Source: Escherichia coli
Lineage (GTDB): Bacteria > Pseudomonadota > Gammaproteobacteria > Enterobacterales > Enterobacteriaceae
Assembly (NCBI RefSeq): GCF_003334315.1
Contig: NZ_QOWR01000032.1
Reading direction: 5' to 3' (one strand)
DNA: 50,212 bases
Shown here: positions 1 to 41,912 of the stretch, piece by piece
How the letters are laid out: every line of letters starts with the position of its first letter
Position numbering within the stretch: the first letter of the stretch is position 1
Made by a program: the position numbers and the translations under genes
The notes under the pieces: generated by a model
Database searches by the model: none
Seen by the model: only the letters and a program-made list of their open reading frames with translations
What the model was told of the DNA's origin: nothing

Positions 1-438
1 AGGCCGCAGTCGGTAACCTCGCGCATACAGCCGGGCAGTGACGTCATCGTCTGCGCGGAAATGGACGAACAGTGGGGCTATGTCGGGGCTAAATCGCGCC
101 AGCGCTGGCTGTTTTACGCGTATGACAGTCTCCGGAAGACGGTTGTTGCGCACGTATTCGGTGAACGCACTATGGCGACGCTGGGGCGTCTTATGAGCCT
201 GCTGTCACCCTTTGACGTGGTGATATGGATGACGGATGGCTGGCCGCTGTATGAATCCCGCCTGAAGGGAAAGCTGCACGTAATCAGCAAGCGATATACG
301 CAGCGAATTGAGCGGCATAACCTGAATCTGAGGCAGCACCTGGCACGGCTGGGACGGAAGTCGCTGTCGTTCTCAAAATCGGTGGAGCTGCATGACAAAG
401 TCATCGGGCATTATCTGAACATAAAACACTATCAATAA
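1..438 (+). CDS. insB: IS1 transposase InsB, 5'-truncated by window edge
   Basis: Frame 1 is open from base 1 ([20 protein letters not shown] then [24 protein letters not shown]...HYLNIKHYQ, stop 436..438); this is the C-terminal portion of IS1 InsB as I remember it. Confidence 0.9.
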
Positions 439-10993: not shown

Positions 10994-12163
10994 ATGAAAA
11001 TTAACTATCCGTTGCTGGCGCTGGCGATTGGCGCGTTTGGTATCGGGACAACGGAGTTCTCGCCAATGGGCTTGTTGCCCGTCATTGCGCGCGGTGTGGA
11101 TGTCTCGATTCCCGCTGCCGGAATGTTAATCAGTGCCTATGCAGTTGGCGTAATGGTGGGCGCGCCGCTGATGACGCTTCTACTTTCTCATCGTGCCCGC
11201 CGCAGTGCGTTGATTTTCCTGATGGCAATTTTCACGCTCGGCAACGTTCTTTCCGCCATCGCGCCGGATTATATGACCCTGATGCTTTCACGCATTTTGA
11301 CCAGCCTGAATCACGGAGCATTTTTTGGTTTGGGTTCAGTCGTGGCCGCAAGCGTGGTGCCAAAACATAAACAGGCCAGCGCAGTTGCCACTATGTTTAT
11401 GGGGTTAACCCTGGCAAATATCGGTGGCGTGCCGGCGGCGACCTGGTTGGGTGAAACCATCGGCTGGCGGATGTCATTTCTGGCAACGGCGGGGCTGGGA
11501 GTGATTTCAATGGTAAGTCTGTTCTTCTCATTACCTAAAGGTGGTGCAGGGGCACGACCTGAAGTGAAAAAAGAGCTGGCGGTATTAATGCGTCCGCAGG
11601 TGCTGTCTGCATTGCTGACGACGGTACTGGGAGCTGGTGCAATGTTTACTCTCTACACCTATATCTCTCCGGTACTGCAAAGTATTACCCACGCAACACC
11701 GGTGTTCGTCACGGCAATGCTGGTGCTGATTGGTGTCGGATTCTCTATCGGTAACTATCTCGGCGGCAAACTGGCAGATCGTTCAGTTAACGGCACGTTG
11801 AAAGGCTTTTTGTTGCTGCTGATGGTGATTATGCTGGCAATCCCGTTCCTGGCCCGCAATGAGTTCGGCGCAGCTATTAGCATGGTGGTGTGGGGCGCAG
11901 CAACCTTTGCGGTCGTACCGCCGTTACAGATGCGCGTGATGCGTGTCGCCAGTGAAGCGCCGGGTCTGTCTTCATCAGTCAATATTGGTGCCTTTAATCT
12001 TGGAAATGCGCTGGGAGCAGCTGCTGGTGGTGCGGTAATTTCCGCTGGGCTGGGATACAGCTTTGTGCCAGTGATGGGAGCGATTGTCGCGGGACTGGCA
12101 TTATTGCTGGTGTTTATGTCAGCCAGAAAACAACCTGAAACAGTTTGCGTTGCTAACAGCTAA
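10994..12163 (+). CDS. ydhP: YdhP MFS transporter (389 aa)
   Basis: ORF 389 aa MKINYPLLALAIGAFGIGTTEFSPMGLLPVIA...; GGAG RBS upstream; length matches YdhP. Confidence 0.88.
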   Translation: MKINYPLLALAIGAFGIGTTEFSPMGLLPVIARGVDVSIPAAGMLISAYAVGVMVGAPLMTLLLSHRARRSALIFLMAIFTLGNVLSAIAPDYMTLMLSRILTSLNHGAFFGLGSVVAASVVPKHKQASAVATMFMGLTLANIGGVPAATWLGETIGWRMSFLATAGLGVISMVSLFFSLPKGGAGARPEVKKELAVLMRPQVLSALLTTVLGAGAMFTLYTYISPVLQSITHATPVFVTAMLVLIGVGFSIGNYLGGKLADRSVNGTLKGFLLLLMVIMLAIPFLARNEFGAAISMVVWGAATFAVVPPLQMRVMRVASEAPGLSSSVNIGAFNLGNALGAAAGGAVISAGLGYSFVPVMGAIVAGLALLLVFMSARKQPETVCVANS

Positions 12164-12197
12164 TTAAACAAAAACGCAGAAGGATAACCTTCTGCGT
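12161..12197. terminator. Terminator hairpin at the ydhP 3' end (T-run on minus strand, so likely terminates sodB-direction transcripts)
   Basis: ACGCAGAAGG-ATAA-CCTTCTGCGT perfect 10-bp stem; minus-strand reading is followed by TTTTTGTTTAATT. Confidence 0.45.
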
Positions 12198-12226
12198 TAC
12201 AGTTGCTGACAACGTGCGATTTATCT

Positions 12227-12374
12227 TGCCGGATGCGGTGTTAACGACTCATCCGCGTTGACATGAAAAGACGCGTTAGGCGTCGTATCATGCAGCGCTT
12301 GTCGGATGCGGCGAGTGCCTTATCCGACCTACATCGATGATCCGCGTAGGCCTGATAAGCGTAGCGCTTCAGGC
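12227..12374. repeat. REP/BIME cluster (at least three REP-like palindromic units) between ydhP and sodB
   Basis: GCCGGATGCGG..., TGTCGGATGCGGCGAGTGCCTTATCCGACCTAC and GTAGGCCTGATAAGCGTAGCGCTTCAGGC resemble the E. coli REP consensus (GCCGGATGCGGCG...TTATCCGGCCTAC) in alternating orientation. Confidence 0.7.
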
Positions 12375-12397
12375 AATGCTGCATTTGCCATCAGTTA

Positions 12398-12979
12398 TTA
12401 TGCAGCGAGATTTTTCGCTACGAATTCCCAGTTCACCAGCGCCCAGAAGTGCTCCAGATAGCCAGGACGTGCATTGCGATAGTCGATGTAATAAGCGTGT
12501 TCCCAGACATCAACGGTCAGCAGCGGAGTCGCATCGGTGGTCAGCGGAGTACCCGCGTTAGAGGTTGAAACGATAGCCAGTTTGCCATCGCTGTTTTTCA
12601 CCAGCCAGGTCCAGCCAGAACCAAAGTTTTTGATCGCTGCATCAGTAAACTGCGCTTTGAAATCGGCAAAGCTGCCAAAAGATGCGGCGATAGCTTCAGC
12701 GACTTTTCCAGTCGGTTCGCCACCGGCGTTCGGTGCCAGGCAGTTCCAGTAGAAAGTATGGTTCCAGACCTGAGCTGCGTTGTTGAATACGCCACCTTCA
12801 GAGCTGCGAATAATCTCTTCCAGTGATTTACCTTCAAACGCGGTACCTTTAATCAGGTTGTTCAGGTTAGTGACATAAGTCTGATGGTGCTTGCCGTAGT
12901 GATACTCGATGGTTTCCGCAGAAATGTGCGGTGCCAGAGCATCTTTAGCATATGGTAGTGCAGGTAATTCGAATGACAT
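12398..12979 (-). CDS. sodB: Superoxide dismutase [Fe] (193 aa)
   Basis: ORF 193 aa [46 protein letters not shown]...; canonical Fe/Mn-SOD sequence. Confidence 0.95.
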
Positions 12980-13106
12980 TGCTACTCTCCTTTATTATTA
13001 ATTTGCATACGTACAATAGCCTTATTGTGCGTATGGATAGGGTAGCAAATTAAAAGGTGAGACAAAAGATGAACTTACCCTGTTGCCGTAACAACAGGGT
13101 AAAGTT

Positions 13107-13922
13107 TTAGCGAAGTGTTTTTGGGGTCATTACCCGACGAGCGCCAACATAGTGGCGCTGCCAGTAGTCTTCACTGAGAGAAGTGATTTGAATTTCCTGA
13201 CCTGTGCGCGGTGACTGAATAAATTTGCCGTTGCCGACATACACGCCGACATGATCGGCTGTGCCGCGTCCCTGAGTACGGAAAAAGACCAGGTCGCCGT
13301 TTTTCAGTTCACTACGTTCGATTGGCGCTGCATCACGCAGGTGATACATTTCATTCGCCGTACGCGGAATACGAATTTTCACCAAATCTTTATAAGCGTA
13401 ATAAACCAGGCCGCTGCAATCAAAACCGGTACGCGGTGAGCTGCCACCCCAACGATATGGCTTACCAATTTGCTGCATCAGTTTATTCATTGCCACTTTC
13501 GTAGCTTTTTGCACCTTCGCTTTGTGCGCGTCGGCAAGAGTTCCTGACGCGGCATTTTTGACTTTCACACAATGCGATTTATAGCCCTTACGTTTGGTAC
13601 ACTTTTCGGTAAAGCTGGCTGAGGCCGTTTTATTGACGGCGTGTTTGCTGCGAGTTTTGGCGTTTTTAGAAGCGGTAATGGAAGATTTTTTAACGGAAGA
13701 AGCGGTTTTGCTTTTGGTCGTACTTTTACTGGCGGCTTTTTTCGCTGTTTTCTGGGTCTTTTTGGTGGTTGCCGTGCTTTTCTTTTTATCTGCTTTTTTG
13801 GTGATATGAGTGGTAGCAGAACTCTCCCTGGCTTGCTTTGAAGCATGGGCCATAGGCGTTAAAGGCAGGGTGGTAAAAAGTAAAGCACAGAGCGTGATCG
13901 AAATACGGTTTATCCGCGCCAC
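13107..13922 (-). CDS. mepH: MepH (YdhO) NlpC/P60 peptidoglycan DD-endopeptidase (271 aa)
   Basis: ORF 271 aa with signal peptide, Lys/Ser/Thr-rich low-complexity linker, and C-terminal NlpC/P60 domain (RWGGSSPRTGFDCSGLVYYAY...GDLVFF...HVGVYVGNGKFIQSP). Confidence 0.88.
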   Translation of the reverse strand: MARINRISITLCALLFTTLPLTPMAHASKQARESSATTHITKKADKKKSTATTKKTQKTAKKAASKSTTKSKTASSVKKSSITASKNAKTRSKHAVNKTASASFTEKCTKRKGYKSHCVKVKNAASGTLADAHKAKVQKATKVAMNKLMQQIGKPYRWGGSSPRTGFDCSGLVYYAYKDLVKIRIPRTANEMYHLRDAAPIERSELKNGDLVFFRTQGRGTADHVGVYVGNGKFIQSPRTGQEIQITSLSEDYWQRHYVGARRVMTPKTLR

Positions 13923-14255
13923 TGAGCGTCCCTCTGTTAAGGCAGGTCTATCATGCCTGCGTCTGATTTACAAAACTTGATGATTCTAATGCATAGAAGA
14001 AGAGAAAGTTAATAGCTTTTATTGTTAAAAAATACGTTTCGTTGGCGAGCGCAAAAAAATGCAGCAGTGAAAGCTAAAAATGGTTATAAATACGCCAGTT
14101 TGCCGGCATCAGAGAAGAAACGAATATTTGAAATGCAACAAATAGAGCAAAGGGATAAAATAGCAAAAGCGTGATGAAAATGTTATTTTCCGATGCCGCA
14201 CTGACCCGCTACAATGTCAGATTACTGCCGTAAAGAAGTTTGAGGAAGCAAGACA

Positions 14256-14603
14256 ATGAGCACCACTATCGAAAAAATCCAACGCCAGATTGCTGAAAAC
14301 CCGATCCTGCTGTACATGAAAGGTTCACCGAAACTGCCGAGCTGCGGTTTCTCTGCCCAGGCAGTCCAGGCGCTTGCCGCATGTGGCGAACGTTTTGCCT
14401 ATGTTGATATTCTGCAGAATCCGGACATTCGTGCGGAACTGCCGAAATATGCTAACTGGCCGACCTTCCCGCAACTGTGGGTTGACGGCGAGCTGGTCGG
14501 CGGTTGTGATATCGTGATCGAAATGTATCAGCGTGGCGAACTGCAGCAGCTGATCAAAGAAACTGCCGCTAAATACAAGTCTGAAGAGCCGGACGCGGAA
14601 TAA
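14256..14603 (+). CDS. grxD: Monothiol glutaredoxin Grx4 (115 aa)
   Basis: ORF 115 aa MSTTIEKIQRQIAENPILLYMKGSPKLPSCGFSAQAV... with CGFS active-site motif. Confidence 0.95.
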   Translation: MSTTIEKIQRQIAENPILLYMKGSPKLPSCGFSAQAVQALAACGERFAYVDILQNPDIRAELPKYANWPTFPQLWVDGELVGGCDIVIEMYQRGELQQLIKETAAKYKSEEPDAE

Positions 14604-14619
14604 TCCGTCCTGCAATACT

Positions 14620-14652
14620 GACGGATGCGAACGGGCATCCGTCAGTCCTTTC
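14620..14652. terminator. Hairpin between convergent grxD and lhr
   Basis: GACGGATGC-GAACGG-GCATCCGTC 9-bp stem directly after the grxD stop, followed by AGTCCTTTCTC. Confidence 0.5.
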
Positions 14653-14653
14653 T

Positions 14654-17600
14654 CTATCCCCAATCCAGCCCTTGTGGCGAACTTGAAAATCCCGCCTCAC
14701 GCAGCAGCATAAACATCGGCGTTTGCCGGACCGGTAGATCATTCACTTCTGTTAGCGTAAAGCGCAGCCGTGGTTCGCGACGCAGTGCGGTAGTCAGCGC
14801 GTGGAAAACCTCTGGGGCGAGTAATTCCTCTTTTTCCTGCCAGACCAGCATTTTTTTGCCACCTTGCGCCAGATAGAGTAACAATTTGCCGCCAGAAACG
14901 ACCACCAGCGCACCCGCCCGACGCGTTGGAACCAGCGTTGCCGGATGTGCAGGCCAGGGCAGAAGATTTCCCCACACATTAGCCGGATCGTTGGCAGAGA
15001 GCGCCACTGGTGTATAGTGGCGCGTTTGCGTGGCTTGTGTCGCCAGATCGCGCAATCGGTCAATAGTCAGACGTTCAGCGAATTGCGCGCCACCCAGACC
15101 TTCTACAAAACGACCTCGCATAATTCGCCCGGAGTCTTCCATACTTCGACAAAGCGTTTGCATCGATGGAAACCCGCCAGGGATATTTTCGGCTATCACC
15201 GCCTGACGACTGATGATGCCGTAGCGGTCGAGCATATTTTCCGCCAGCGCCAGCATCCTTTCGGTATCGTTTAGTGGCTCCACCTGCAATAACGACCAGC
15301 GTCCAGCCAGATTTGGTGTGTTGTAAGATACCCGCGGCGAGACGGGTTGCGCATAGACAGGACGTCCACGACGAGCCCGGTGACTGCGGCGAGTTGAGGT
15401 GCGTGCGTTGGAACTGCTGCGGGTGAGGGCGCGTAACGGTGCCCAAATGTCGCTGGTGATGACGCCTTGCCAGACCAGCGCCCATAACGCCTCTTGCAGG
15501 GCAGAGAGATCAACCGATTCGCCGATTTTGTCGCGTATCCGTTGGCTGATTTGTTGTGCAAACCAGGCTCCTCCGTCAGCCAGAACAGCGACTATCGCTT
15601 GTTGCAGCGCCGAACGATTCGCCTGATCCGCTTCGGCGGGAGTGAACGATTCTGCAGCATATTCCTGTAGATGCAGTGCCACCAGGCCGTCATCTTCACC
15701 CAGTTTTTTTTGCCCCGACCAGATAACCGCACCGGTTGCCAGTAATTCATCGAGCATTTCTGACGAATAGTCGCGTACGCGGGCAGGCAGGATCTGGCTT
15801 TCCCAGAGTGAGGCGGGTAAACCGACTCCGGCAAGCTGTTCGATCACCCGCATCACGCCATCTACGCCCTCATAAACGCCTGGCGATGTTGAGGCAAAGA
15901 GCGCCGGGCTACCATCGGTGGCGGGTAATACGCCCTGACGTTCCAGCAGCAATCGCGCATAGGTCGTGGCTGCAACGGGACGCGTCGCTTCTCTGGCGGC
16001 TTGCAGCGAGCGCAAACGCAGACGACGAAATACTTCATCGCTCACCCAGATGTCTTGTTGCAGATTCATCACCAGACCCTGTTCACGCAGTTGCTGAAGC
16101 TGCTCTTCGACAATGGCAATACCGAGACTAAACTCATGAGCCAGTTGTTCAGCCGTGACCAGAGCATGAGCCCGGAGATAGCGCAGAAAGAGGTCGCGAA
16201 GCGGGTAACTGACTCTATGTAAATAAATCTCTGGCAATGACTCTGGTAGTCGTACGCCGAGGGCATCACGCAGCCTGGCGGCATCATCCATACAGGCAAG
16301 ACGCTCCTGTCCGCTAATCATCGCTGGGAAGATTCGTTTTACTGCAAGAAGATTTTCCAGATACGACGCAACCTCTTCACTGCTGCCTGTATGCCGTTGC
16401 GCCAGGTCTTCAACGGTCATTGGCCCCAGTTCGCGCAGCAGGTCGAACAATCCTTCTTCACCTTTCGCTCTTCTGCCAGGAGCCAGTCGTTGCAACTCTT
16501 CTTCCACCTGGCGAATGACCTGCGGGTCGAGTAATTCCCCCGGATCGACCTGTCCGAGTAGATTGCGCAGTAACTCGCTGTCCAGCGACAGTACGGATGC
16601 CCGGCGCTCTGCCAGCGGGGCGTCGCTCTGGTACATAAATTCCGCGACATAGCCGAACAATAAACTTGTGGCGAAAGGCGAGGGCGTAGTGGTCGTTACA
16701 TCGGATATTTGAATTTCGCCACCGTTCAGGCGACGCATCAAACGTTCCAGTGCGGGAAGATCATAAACATCTTGCAGACATTCGCGTAGGGTTTCGAGAA
16801 TGACCGGAAAATCCGGATATCCCTGAGCGATTTCCAGCAACTGACTGGCGCGCAGCCGTTGTTGCCAAAGCGGGGTGCGATGGCCCGGAGTGCGCCCCGG
16901 CATTAATAATGCCCGCGCGGCGCATTCGCGAAAACGGGCGGCGAAAAGTGCCGAGCTGCCTACCGCCTCGCGGACAATTTGCAGCAACTTTTCTGGTTCA
17001 AACAAAAAAATCGCGGCATCGGGCAATTTACCATCGGTGTCAGGAATACGTGCAACAATGCCGTCATCACTGGCGACCACCGACGCGTCAGCGCCCCATA
17101 GCGCATGTATTCGCCCGGCAATCGCCAGCGCCCAGGGTTCATGCACCCGTCTTCCATAGGGAGAGTGCAAAATAATACGCCAGTCACCAATTTCATCACG
17201 GCACCGTTCGAGGACCAGATGGCGACTCCCCGGAACGATGCCCGTCGCGTTGCGCTGCTCCTCAATCAACCCCTGAATATTGGCGATCGTATTTTCTTCT
17301 GCCAGCCACGGGGGAATAGTCCCGGAAAAGAACGCGCCATCCGCCAGCAAATGAAGAAAATCGCCGATCATCTCGCCTAATTCAGCCGGACGTCCGTTAC
17401 CTTCACCACGCCAGAAGGGGAGCCGGGCAGAACGACCCGGAGCAGGAGTCACAATCACCTGATCGCCGGTGATTTGCTGGATCCGCCATGAGGTAGCGCC
17501 GAGAGTGATAATGTCGTTCACCCGCGACTCATATACCATCTCCTCATCCAGTTCACCCACCCGCCGCGAACCGGCCTTTTCTTCACCTTCGGGTAATAAC

Positions 17601-38156: not shown

Positions 38157-39215
38157 TTACCCTTTGCGATGGCCGTAGACGCGCGGACGCGTGTAGTAAT
38201 CGATCAGAGGAACCGTGATGTTCGCCAGCAGGACGGCAAAAGCCACGCCGTCAGGATAGCCGCCGAAACTGCGGATCAACCAGACTAATAAGCCCGCCAG
38301 CGCGCCGAAAATAAGACGACCACGATTGGTCGTAGAAGCGGTAACCGGGTCAGTCAAAATAAAGAATGCGCCGAGCATGGTCGCACCAGACAGCAGATGA
38401 ATTTGCGGTGCTGCCAGTGTTTCTGGTGAGAACAACCAGCCCAACGTTGCGCATAACGCCAGCGTTACTAAGAAGCTGAGGGGAATATGCCAGCGAATCG
38501 CTTTCTGCCATAGCAACCACAGGCCGCCAGCCAGCCAGGCGAGATTTACCCATTGCCAACCAGCGCCCGCCAGAATACCGCTGTAGATCGGATATTGCAT
38601 AATCTGTTCAACCGAATGACCGGCACGGACAGAGGTTTTAAATGTATCCAGCGGTGTCGCCTGACTAATGCCATCAATACCTAAGCGTAGTGTGTTCATA
38701 TCACCACCACTGGCGGTATGTCCGCTGAAAATAACCTGTATGGCGTCGATAAAACCAGGGATGTTGACCGCAATTTCATGTGGCGGTAACCAGCTGGTCA
38801 TCTGCACAGGGAAGGAGATCAGTAAGACCACATAACCAATCATTGCCGGATTAAACGGGTTTTGCCCCAGACCGCCATACAACTGTTTAGCGATGATCAC
38901 CGCAAACACCGTACCCAGCACGACCATCCACCATGGCGCGAGGGGGGGAATACTTACCGCCAGCAATAAGCCTGTCAGCAATGCTGAGTTATCTTTCAAC
39001 GTTGCGGCTACCGACTGCTTGCGTAGTTTGAGTACGAGAGCTTCGGCTAACAGAGCACTAACCGATGCCAACAGGATCTGAACGAGAGTACCCCAACCAA
39101 AAAACCACAGTTGCGCTGCGATTCCTGGCACGGCTGCGAGCAACACCAACAGCATAATGCGCGATGTCTGGCGCTGGTTATGGGTATAAGGGGAGCTAGC
39201 TATTCTGAATACCAT
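38157..39215 (-). CDS. rsxD: RsxD (RnfD) membrane subunit (352 aa)
   Basis: ORF 352 aa [42 protein letters not shown]... Confidence 0.92.

Positions 39216-41912
<2,697 letters not shown>

Follow-up and report, generated by a model that had tools for sequence, protein, structure and literature searches.

The mepH gene of Escherichia coli, carried by the 50,212-nt stretch of DNA analysed here (the window), very probably combines two things: a real disordered basic tail on the encoded enzyme, and spurious open reading frames (ORFs) that overlap the DNA for that tail. Three ORFs of at least 60 aa lie across the tail, and all three are by-products of base composition, not genes. A floppy tail at the start of mature MepH is a correct but ordinary finding; MepH is already known. 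The features of the locus are collected in Table 1.

Table 1 Features of the mepH locus (positions in the window).
Feature	Position	Strand	Description	Basis
mepH (ydhO) CDS	13107..13922	-	271 aa, GTG start; NlpC/P60 (C40) peptidoglycan DD-endopeptidase	ORF list and DNA identity
Predicted signal peptide	13842..13922	-	codons 1–27: MARINR, hydrophobic core, AHA	read from sequence
Polycationic tail, predicted disordered	13602..13841	-	codons 28–107; 23 K+R, 3 D+E, pI 10.9	
Low-complexity core	13614..13802	-	codons 41–103; K/T/S/A make up 85% of residues	
Conserved pre-domain segment	13467..13601	-	codons 108–152	alignment of 54 orthologues and AlphaFold secondary structure
NlpC/P60 catalytic domain	13134..13466	-	codons 153–263	Pfam PF00877, E = 2.3e-36
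12-nt (QKAS) indel polymorphism	13752..13757	-	imperfect tandem duplication CCAGAAAGCCAG/CCAGAAAACAGC; short allele in window	
A6 run (K78 K79)	13686..13691	-	A6-to-A7 frameshift allele	alignment of P0030-encoding contigs
A6 run (K42 K43)	13794..13799	-	A5 in two assemblies gives chimeric proteins, +1 frame	alignment
By-product ORF, 93 aa	13565..13846	-	+1 frame of mepH; Pro/Lys/Arg/Leu-rich, pI 12	
By-product antisense ORF, 71 aa	13594..13809	+	TTG start; hydrophobic, L/V/A/F-rich	
By-product antisense ORF, 66 aa	13641..13841	+	GTG start; in-register antisense, F/G/R-rich	

The mepH gene and its domain organization

The gene is E. coli mepH, the ortholog of K-12 mepH by sequence identity and synteny. 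A 1101-nt query covering it is 100% identical to RefSeq genomes annotated mepH, in which the matching locus is labelled 'peptidoglycan DD-endopeptidase MepH' and holds no other gene, and the protein is WP_000101193.1. The initial annotation had named the gene MepH as well, and in accordance Pfam places an NlpC/P60 domain at residues 153–263, with a match that spans the whole model (1–105 of 105). A Shine-Dalgarno motif, GAGG, lies 8 nt upstream of the start. The neighbours are sodB on one side and grxD/lhr on the other, and the order grxD-mepH-sodB is that of the RefSeq genomes. In E. albertii, Salmonella, Citrobacter, Leclercia, and Kosakonia, grxD and mepH are likewise paired; the gene downstream of mepH is sodB in all of these but Kosakonia, which has an MFS transporter there.

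Two residues of the catalytic domain, C169 (DCSG motif) and H224 (HVGVY), are unchanged in 54 orthologues; from general knowledge of the NlpC/P60 family, we take them to be the catalytic residues. In the PDB, 39 NlpC/P60 chains match MepH at E < 1e-5, and these homologues reach only from residue ~122 onward. NCBIfam contains no MepH-specific model and every match of MepH to it falls below the curated cut-off, the best being the MepS equivalog NF008096 (86 bits, with the cut-off at 186). The low scores are due to the lack of a MepH model in the library and not to a fault in the gene, which RefSeq still names MepH. MepH is essential in cells that lack both MepS and MepM, and NlpI-Prc controls it. 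Its DD-endopeptidase activity is directed at 4-3 cross-links (PMC11211486, PMC8996183).

The segment that precedes the catalytic domain is 43–49 residues long among the orthologues, with an identity of 0.68. Residues C108 and C118, invariant in the 54 orthologues, are positioned on a predicted β-hairpin that is followed by a helix at residues 129–151 in the AlphaFold model, and the two cysteines may form a disulfide.

At the N-terminus, a short hydrophobic core, where AlphaFold places a helix (residues 7–17), is followed by an A-x-A site (AHA). The next residue, S28, is invariant in the orthologues, and a lipobox is absent. Signal peptidase is therefore predicted to cut before S28, between AHA and SK.

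Composition and predicted disorder of the tail

The N-terminal third of MepH had been described as a highly basic low-complexity segment at 13565–13850, which corresponds to residues 25–120, and the peptide quoted for it, KKADKKKSTATTKKTQKTAKKAASKSTTKSKTASSVKK, is present exactly in the MepH translation. The composition agrees with that description. The core contains 30% K, 19% T, 19% S, and 17% A, with 20 basic residues and one acidic residue, and the tail as a whole has a net charge of about +20 and only five hydrophobic residues in 80. In 25-residue windows, the Shannon entropy falls to a minimum of 2.1 bits in the tail, compared with 3.3–3.8 bits in the remainder of MepH.

The bias is equally visible in the DNA. 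The sense strand of the core is composed of A, C, G, and T in the fractions 0.45, 0.29, 0.15, and 0.11, the AT skew of the whole window is at its lowest (-0.604 on the + strand) precisely at 13614, and a T content this high on the + strand is seen in just 0.03% of the 189-nt windows in the stretch. The compositional bias of the tail is no chance fluctuation. Tandem Repeats Finder reports no repeat array in 13400–14000, indicating that the tail is compositionally biased but not built of tandem units. A search of 12000–15000 against Rfam at a permissive E-value returns nothing in the tail, and the terminator-like + strand matches inside it are explained by its T-richness on that strand. Outside the tail, the Rfam search gives sub-threshold matches to naRNA4 and the SodB-thermometer.

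Model and composition together support the assignment of residues 28–107 as a probably disordered low-complexity region. In the AlphaFold model, residues 19–104 have a pLDDT of 27–32 and no secondary structure by DSSP. The model is weak overall, with a mean pLDDT of 47 and values of 40–78 in the catalytic domain, so that the low pLDDT of the tail is supportive only and not decisive. In the Uversky plot, the tail has <H> 0.36 compared with a boundary of 0.50, but the folded domain is also near the boundary; since neither this plot nor the TOP-IDP threshold separates the tail cleanly from the folded domain, we relied on neither. No relative found in a PDB search covers the tail, save for a low-complexity alignment to LytE, and a literature search gave no report of experimental disorder for MepH.

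The initial annotation proposed that the segment is a disordered spacer or tether. The disorder is upheld by the low pLDDT, the scarcity of hydrophobic residues, and the fast divergence of sequence and length. The word linker does not hold: the predicted cleavage makes the tail the N-terminus of mature MepH, and it is therefore not a linker between two domains.

Evolution of the tail

An alignment of 54 orthologues, the check that had been proposed for variation in linker length, gives tails of 64–96 residues with a median of 80. Identity among the orthologues is 0.41 in the tail compared with 0.91 in the catalytic domain, and the tail pN/pS is 0.26 compared with 0.04 in the rest of the gene. 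The composition of the tail is nevertheless kept, with K+R at 24–32%, D+E at 1–5%, and a net charge of +15 to +23. Among full-length 50%-cluster representatives whose domain identity is 55% or more, nearly all have a basic tail of 55–200 aa (net +10 to +38), and in more distant relatives the tail stays strongly basic as its composition moves toward R, P, V, and Q. As charge and composition are conserved while sequence and length drift, any function would depend on bulk properties.

The same figures bear on whether the tail does anything specific. It could be a passive, nearly neutral low-complexity expansion, a spacer without specific interaction that is kept since indels and substitutions in it are harmless. 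The low identity, the spread of lengths, and the higher pN/pS of the tail would fit such a spacer, as would the rare E. coli database proteins that miss 9–61 tail residues and the non-synonymous changes at five of the seven variable sites among six E. coli alleles. However, the tail pN/pS (0.21–0.26) is still well below 1, the median length is retained, and the net charge, the acidic fraction, and the K/S/T/A content are tightly bounded across genera, with a strongly basic character that outlasts the R/P/V/Q shift in distant relatives. The alleles with large deletions are singletons, mostly on short contigs. The conservation of positive charge across genera argues for more than a passive spacer, and we regard the passive reading as rather unlikely.

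Proposed function of the tail

The mechanism that we prefer, tentatively and at somewhat less than even likelihood, is electrostatic targeting. Once cut by signal peptidase, MepH would be a soluble periplasmic enzyme whose N-terminus is a disordered polycationic tail. Such a tail would be drawn by its charge, without specificity, to the anionic peptidoglycan sacculus or to other polyanions of the envelope, and the catalytic domain would thereby be enriched where its substrate lies. A literature search found no experiment or paper on the function of the MepH tail.

The tail may alternatively act mainly as a recognition and docking element for the NlpI adaptor and the Prc protease, setting the turnover of MepH and not its binding to substrate. 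Prc degrades MepH with the help of NlpI (PMC8996183, PMC11789061), the disordered N-terminus of MepS binds NlpI and folds upon binding (PMC11211486), and MepH and MepS are both NlpC/P60 endopeptidases with disordered N-termini. However, no resemblance in sequence was found between the tail of MepH and the N-terminus of MepS, the NCBIfam and PDB matches to MepS starting only from residues ~101/145 onward. The MepS–NlpI contacts are hydrophobic (L34, V35, and V38; PMC11211486), whereas the MepH tail is nearly devoid of hydrophobic residues, and a large share of MepH proteolysis is independent of NlpI (PMC11789061). A docking role as the main function is thus doubtful. A looser version, by analogy with MepS, in which the tail would serve as a flexible handle for NlpI-Prc control of MepH levels, is compatible with the electrostatic role; we give it about one chance in four.

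Another reading takes the signal peptide as uncleaved. It would then be an inner-membrane anchor, and the tail would be a true tether between this anchor and the catalytic domain that bridges the periplasm as far as the sacculus. An 80-residue tail is ~29 nm long when fully extended, with a coil end-to-end distance of ~7 nm, so the sacculus is within reach, and the signal peptide is conserved beyond the usual, with a constant length of 27 residues, 76% identity, and invariant T10, L11, C12, A13, and L14 in the 54 orthologues. However, the canonical AHA site, the short hydrophobic core, the invariant S28, and the missing lipobox all point to cleavage, and an uncleaved anchor appears improbable.

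To return to targeting in the broader sense, the proposition that the tail is a conserved functional module that sends MepH-type endopeptidases to the sacculus or to NlpI-Prc is evenly balanced in our judgement, and it is likelier than the proposition that the 71-aa ORF is a gene. If the tail is such a module, it would add modestly to what is known of cell-wall biology. The conserved charge across Enterobacterales suggests a determinant of MepH localisation or turnover, which is a small and tractable question.

Origin of the overlapping ORFs

The stop-free runs extend over mepH codons 21–119 in the +1 frame and over codons 28–101 and 39–114 in two antisense frames. At least four frames free of stops across 180 nt are found at ~1% of positions in the window, the tail among them. 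The codons of the tail residues (AAA/AAG, ACN, GCN, and AGC/TCN) drive the sense strand to 45% A and 11% T. Because a stop on the sense strand requires T, and an antisense stop requires TTA, CTA, or TCA in the sense sequence, three of the five other frames are open for 73–98 codons.

The initial annotation had called the open frames on both strands spurious, and four lines of evidence sustain that call. First, when synonymous codons are resampled for the same protein, runs at least as long as those observed occur with a probability of 0.28 in the +1 frame, 0.86 in the 66-aa frame, and 0.85 in the 71-aa frame. Second, none of the 93-, 71-, and 66-aa ORFs has a Shine-Dalgarno motif (AGGAGG-type, at least 4 nt, 4–12 nt upstream). 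Third, in a comparison of E. coli with E. albertii, the mepH frame has the lowest pN/pS (0.21), the other values being 1.64 in the 93-aa, 3.79 in the 66-aa, and 0.42 in the 71-aa frame. Fourth, the 93-aa frame does not stay open in Salmonella, Leclercia, and Kosakonia.

Other observations are in line with this. Two of the three ORFs start with TTG or GTG. A promoter scan of 13000–14260 gives no site on the + strand for the antisense ORFs and only a site upstream of mepH. The boundaries and peptides of the overlapping ORFs are not conserved across genera, and in the seven complete genomes of E. coli that were inspected, RefSeq has no gene other than mepH at this locus. The exact sequence of the 93-aa ORF was not found in a collection of 15 billion proteins, the 66-aa ORF is called only on short ENA/Logan contigs, and the 71-aa ORF has a single deposition, under the name 'Uncharacterised protein [Shigella sonnei]' (CSP62639.1). 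A literature search that covered the papers themselves returned nothing relevant on translated ORFs internal to mepH.

Codon log-odds are -0.33 for the 93-aa ORF and 0.25 for the 71-aa ORF; the latter value lies among those of real genes in the window, so that codon usage by itself gives no ground for rejecting the 71-aa ORF. Its pN/pS of 0.42, twice the value of the mepH frame, is an inheritance effect of an antisense frame that shares the sense wobble position. That at least one overlapping ORF is real, the best candidate being this one as a small hydrophobic membrane protein nested in the mepH tail, is very improbable: the codon score, the pN/pS, the one deposition, and an antisense frame free of stops across at least some of the tail in six of six genera examined stand against an open frame expected from the MepH sequence alone, a TTG start with neither a Shine-Dalgarno motif nor a promoter-like site on its strand in the region scanned, a start, length, and peptide that vary by genus, the mepH-only RefSeq annotation, and four database members, three of them on contigs shorter than 1 kb.

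The 5' third of mepH shows less synonymous variation than the 3' part, with a pS of 0.185 in the tail, 0.23–0.27 in the flanking genes, and 0.53 in the 3' domain. We considered low 5' synonymous divergence as a sign of an overlapping gene and rejected it, since pN/pS is lowest in the mepH frame and the tail pS is near that of the flanking genes, the 3' domain being the outlier.

Indels and frameshift alleles

The tail is prone to indels (a 12-nt duplication, rare in-frame deletions, and frameshifts by slippage at A6) because of its A-runs and short direct repeats. Counted with a 202-nt BLAST query in 5425 complete E. coli genomes, the QKAS indel is present as the short allele (80-residue tail) in 3546 and as the long allele in 1879.

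The A7 allele of the run at K78 K79, found in the contigs that encode P0030, joins the start of the 93-aa ORF to the catalytic domain, and gene callers use the ATG of the 93-aa ORF; this allele is absent from the 5425 complete RefSeq E. coli genomes. Both assemblies with A5 at K42 K43 also have grxD and lhr broken, so that the A5 reads are probably homopolymer assembly errors. We considered whether the double-frameshift chimeras P0013 and P0022 are natural variants that tolerate frameshifts and rejected this, as they come from the same assemblies with broken grxD and lhr.

Frameshifted or mis-assembled mepH alleles are called as chimeric 'exported hydrolases', with a start at the +1-frame ATG or a tail read in the +1 frame. 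The locus is a lesson for annotation: a T-poor coding segment yields long ORFs in other frames, and gene callers sometimes report them.

Comparison with known systems

The protein is identical to E. coli K-12 MepH (YdhO; MEROPS C40), and the gene lies in the same neighbourhood, here with the short tail allele. The closest parallel outside MepH is its paralogue MepS (Spr), also an NlpC/P60 endopeptidase (PDB 2k1g, 7v6s, and 8xud; E about 1e-19 to 1e-20) with a disordered region N-terminal to the catalytic domain, and also a substrate of NlpI-Prc. However, MepS is an outer-membrane lipoprotein whose N-terminal region, of ~36 residues and not polycationic, binds NlpI via hydrophobic residues (PMC11211486), whereas the signal peptide of MepH is of the ordinary kind and its 80-residue tail has a net charge of +20, and beyond the catalytic domain no sequence similarity between the two was seen.

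Listeria p60/Iap, B. subtilis LytE, and mycobacterial RipC likewise have a Ser/Thr/Asn/Lys-rich low-complexity stretch before the NlpC/P60 domain. Sub-threshold NCBIfam and PDB alignments enter the MepH tail (PRK13914 at residues 22–264, RipC at 40–250, and LytE, 8i2e, at 51–263) because these Gram-positive hydrolases share low-complexity segments. In them, the segment joins wall-binding modules (LysM, SH3, or coiled coil) to the catalytic domain, whereas MepH has no N-terminal module, and MepH scores far under the curated cut-offs of their models (81 bits against 647). The resemblance is one of composition and not of homology.

Histone H1 and bacterial histone-like tails are Lys/Ala/Ser/Thr-rich, of similar charge, and encoded by low-complexity, indel-prone DNA, like the MepH tail (PMC5400378); DNA in the cytoplasm or nucleus is what these tails bind, whereas MepH is an exported protein, and the likeness is compositional only. 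B. subtilis PBP1 and RsgI differ from MepH in organism, envelope, family, and composition, so that the analogy is in concept only. They too have disordered low-complexity extracytoplasmic segments in which bulk properties matter over sequence, and these regions have been proposed as probes of the peptidoglycan meshwork (PMC9732909).

The mepH gene and its flanks

The gene is E. coli mepH itself, neither a new member nor a variant. Every one of the 5426 complete RefSeq E. coli genomes contains a match to a 1101-nt query (13000-14100), identity being 100% in many of them, and the annotation beneath the match reads 'mepH: peptidoglycan DD-endopeptidase MepH'. The gene order in the E. coli region is sodB-mepH-grxD-lhr; in strain 120899, ydhP, sodB, mepH (WP_000101193.1), grxD, and lhr are the sole annotated features at the locus. 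GAGG lies 8 nt 5' of the mepH start. Since the only promoter-like site of a consensus scan lies 5' of mepH and a stem-loop follows the gene, the transcript is likely monocistronic, as judged from the sequence.

Two sub-threshold Rfam matches adjoin sodB: naRNA4/CssrE, a REP-like element downstream of the gene (47.7 bits versus a gathering score of 59.5), and the SodB 5'UTR thermometer over its leader (31 bits versus 98). Separately, mepH is partly lost in 2 of the 5426 genomes, both times annotated as a pseudogene. In TUM2805 (L003, NZ_CP128950.1, 2608-2721) the final 114 nt are all that remains, and in ST2747 (L019, NZ_CP007394.1, 1501-2127) mepH has neither start nor signal peptide and only part of its tail. 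Such losses agree with the view that a cell with intact mepS and mepM can do without mepH.

Features of the mepH locus and regions of MepH
Feature	Position	Strand	Remarks
mepH ORF, 271 aa	13107..13922	-	GTG start; contains the peptide quoted in the initial annotation; ORF listing
Sigma-70-like promoter match, TTAACT-18-TAGAAT	13983-14012	-	~60 nt upstream of mepH start
13-bp stem-loop, then T-run	13074-13103	-	Directly 3' of mepH stop codon
Sub-threshold Rfam matches adjoining sodB	12260-12329 and 12950-13054		Rfam search
Sec signal peptide (predicted cleavage)		-	MARINR, hydrophobic core, AHA, then invariant S28; A-x-A site, read from sequence
K/S/T/A tail	MepH residues 28-107	-	Read from sequence
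Beta-hairpin, predicted	MepH residues 104-109 / 117-122	-	Carries C108 and C118
Helix	MepH residues 129-151	-	Precedes catalytic domain
NlpC/P60 domain	MepH residues 153-263	-	Pfam, E = 2.3e-36
ORF, 93 aa	13565..13846	-	+1 frame of mepH; ORF listing, at least 60 aa
ORF, 71 aa	13594..13809	+	ORF listing, at least 60 aa
ORF, 66 aa	13641..13841	+	ORF listing, at least 60 aa

MepH carries a cationic tail predicted to be disordered

The low-complexity basic segment noticed by the initial annotation in the N-terminal part of MepH (13565-13850, residues 25-120) is a genuine translated part of mepH, strongly cationic and indel-prone, and every particular of its description is correct. The core (residues 41-103) is 30% Lys, 19% Thr, 19% Ser, and 17% Ala, with 20 basic residues and one acidic residue, and the entire pre-domain stretch (residues 28-152) has a net charge of +30. 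In 25-residue windows, Shannon entropy reaches a minimum of 2.1 bits in the core, compared with 3.3-3.8 bits elsewhere in MepH. The sense strand of the core is 45% A, 29% C, 15% G, and 11% T, each base making up about 25% of the catalytic domain. The most extreme AT skew of the 50-kb window falls exactly at 13614, and only 0.03% of its 189-nt windows are as T-rich on the + strand.

By prediction, the tail is without a fold. Only 5 of its 80 residues are hydrophobic, and its mean hydropathy is 0.36 versus a charge-hydropathy boundary of 0.50. In an AlphaFold2 model computed with a 54-sequence alignment, residues 19-104 have pLDDT of 27-32 and no secondary structure, which is supportive only, the model being weak overall (mean 47). 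No solved structure covers the tail; homologues in the PDB begin at about residue 122, save for a low-complexity alignment to LytE. The proposed disorder is thus supported, with one change of term: once the signal peptide is removed, as predicted, nothing lies N-terminal to the segment, and 'tail' is therefore a better word than 'linker'. C108 and C118 (13569-13601, codons 108-118), one on each predicted hairpin strand, are invariant in 54 orthologues and likely form a periplasmic disulfide.

The overlapping ORFs are by-products of composition

The 93-, 71-, and 66-aa ORFs are spurious compositional by-products that are occasionally mis-annotated. Their frames are free of stops over mepH codons 21-119 (+1 frame) and 28-101 and 39-114 (the two antisense frames), and the remaining two alternative frames have ordinary stop density. 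We redrew the synonymous codons of MepH 2000 times from the codon usage of the window, and, in a separate test, shuffled the codons of the gene itself. In the 93-aa, 66-aa, and 71-aa frames, 28%, 86%, and 85% of resamples, respectively, have an open run at least as long as the observed one, indicating that the open frames follow from the MepH amino-acid sequence alone. None of the three ORFs has a Shine-Dalgarno motif of at least 4 nt at a usable distance, two of the three start with TTG or GTG, and the consensus scan finds no promoter-like site on the + strand. No Rfam family matches the segment.

Codon statistics reject the 93-aa and 66-aa ORFs (log2 odds per codon of -0.33 and 0.03). The hydrophobic 71-aa ORF escapes rejection (0.25, inside the real-gene range), which probably explains why it is occasionally called. 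When gap-free tails are compared between the 275-aa allele of E. coli and E. albertii, the mepH frame has the lowest pN/pS, 0.21; the values for the 93-aa and 66-aa frames are 1.64 and 3.79, and that for the 71-aa frame is 0.42. This last is the antisense frame that shares its wobble position with mepH and thus inherits part of the mepH selection signal. Nor are the ORFs conserved across genera. In Salmonella the +1 frame is interrupted at codon 62, in Leclercia and Kosakonia it has no ORF that crosses the tail, and the antisense frames are open to differing extents, with different starts and peptides.

The warning against annotating such frames is borne out by the databases. The 71-aa ORF falls in a cluster of four, one of which is CSP62639.1, 'Uncharacterised protein [Shigella sonnei]', and the 66-aa ORF in a cluster of two, most members coming from contigs shorter than 1 kb. 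A collection of about 15 billion proteins has no entry with the exact 93-aa sequence.

Elsewhere in the window, an rsxC/rnfC-like ORF of 708 aa (39216-41342, - strand) ends in four to five Ala/Lys/Glu/Gln-rich tandem repeats of ~32 residues (especially 39227-39894). This repeat region is the window's largest stretch with at least four stop-free frames, and its overlapping ORFs are longer than those of the tail: 403 aa (39111..40322, + strand), 183 aa (39227..39778, - strand), and 200 aa (39292..39894, + strand).

The tail evolves fast and keeps its charge

The tail is evolving fast and is constrained in composition and charge. We aligned 54 orthologues from Escherichia, Citrobacter, Salmonella, Kosakonia, Leclercia, Enterobacter, and others, the check that the initial annotation had proposed for length variation. 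Mean pairwise identity is 0.76 in the signal peptide (length fixed at 27), 0.41 in the tail (length 64-96, median 80), 0.68 in the hairpin and helix (length 43-49), and 0.91 in the catalytic domain (length fixed at 119). The bulk properties of the tail are narrow: K+R 24-32%, D+E 1-5%, S+T+A 42-57%, hydrophobic residues 3-12%, and net charge +15 to +23. For a wider search of 1.84 billion cluster representatives, only residues 105-271 were used, the tail being left out to avoid biasing the matches. Of the full-length, single-domain relatives that have at least 55% domain identity and begin with what resembles a signal peptide, nearly all have a pre-domain region of 55-200 residues with a net charge of +10 to +38, even where composition moves to Arg, Pro, Val, and Gln. 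Such a region is absent from more distant relatives that are the size of MepS.

E. coli is polymorphic for a 12-nt imperfect tandem duplication (CCAGAAAGCCAG / CCAGAAAACAGC), which adds QKAS. The short allele, that of the window, occurs in 3546 and the long allele in 1879 of 5425 complete genomes. Rare database MepH proteins are without 9-61 tail residues, and the deletion end-points share 3-9 nt of microhomology (e.g. ACCGCTTCT). Among six E. coli alleles, 5 of 7 variable tail sites are non-synonymous; all 18 in the rest of mepH are third-position changes.

Synonymous divergence between E. coli and E. albertii (L010, 601-1428) climbs along mepH: 0/21 sites differ in the signal peptide, and the later regions have values of 0.185 (tail), 0.286 (hairpin and helix), and 0.528 (catalytic domain). 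In the flanking genes it is 0.267 (sodB) and 0.228 (grxD). E. coli polymorphism has the same gradient. The value that seems out of line is that of the catalytic domain, which recombination may have raised; a recombination mosaic or 5' synonymous constraint are possible causes of the gradient. Frame-specific pN/pS does not indicate an overlapping gene as its source.

Frameshifted alleles in databases

In several database 'MepH' proteins, the tail is read in the +1 frame (KKQIKRKARQPPKRPRKQRKKPPVKV) before the return to the catalytic domain. One such cluster, P0030, has 101 members, from many Logan short-read assemblies and a single NCBI contig of 4.8 Mb. Its frameshift is an A6-to-A7 insertion at K78-K79 (e.g. 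ERR13763722, ERR13669413, ERR13763582, ERR15567864; L004-L007, about 1656-1662). The gene call runs from a +1-frame ATG (13846) into the catalytic domain, and the resulting 246-aa protein, which has no signal peptide, is annotated as 'putative exported hydrolase'. None of 5425 complete RefSeq E. coli genomes carries the allele, which probably represents a single clone with a mepH pseudogene. Clusters P0013 and P0022 each have A6-to-A5 at K42-K43 plus a second, compensating indel. Because grxD and lhr are broken too in their assemblies, these are most likely homopolymer assembly errors.

Possible roles of the tail

No work on the MepH tail was found in the literature searched. Charge and length are conserved and sequence is not, so function should depend on bulk electrostatics. 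Peptidoglycan stem peptides bear free carboxylates, and the sacculus is net anionic. A flexible +20 tail on soluble, periplasmic MepH would raise its local concentration on the sacculus, and we tentatively take such electrostatic targeting as the main role.

A handle for NlpI-Prc, which would be compatible with electrostatic targeting, is rather unlikely. MepH is degraded by Prc, partly with NlpI (PMC8996183; PMC11789061), and the disordered N-terminus of its paralogue MepS binds NlpI (PMC11211486), but MepS makes this contact through hydrophobic residues, of which the MepH tail has almost none. That the tail is a passive spacer is equally doubtful. It is improbable that the signal peptide stays uncleaved as an anchor, in which case the segment would be a true tether.

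Comparison with known systems

The feature is already known, and the main use of the locus is as a documented case of spurious ORFs driven by composition and of mis-annotation driven by homopolymers. PBP1 and RsgI of B. subtilis have extracytoplasmic disordered regions (PMC9732909) that are a conceptual comparator only, without homology to the MepH tail. Listeria p60, B. subtilis LytE, and RipC have low-complexity spacers before NlpC/P60, and their sub-threshold alignments into the tail reflect analogy, not homology. Among the closest comparators is the disordered N-terminus of MepS, its likeness to the tail being compositional or functional rather than one of homology.
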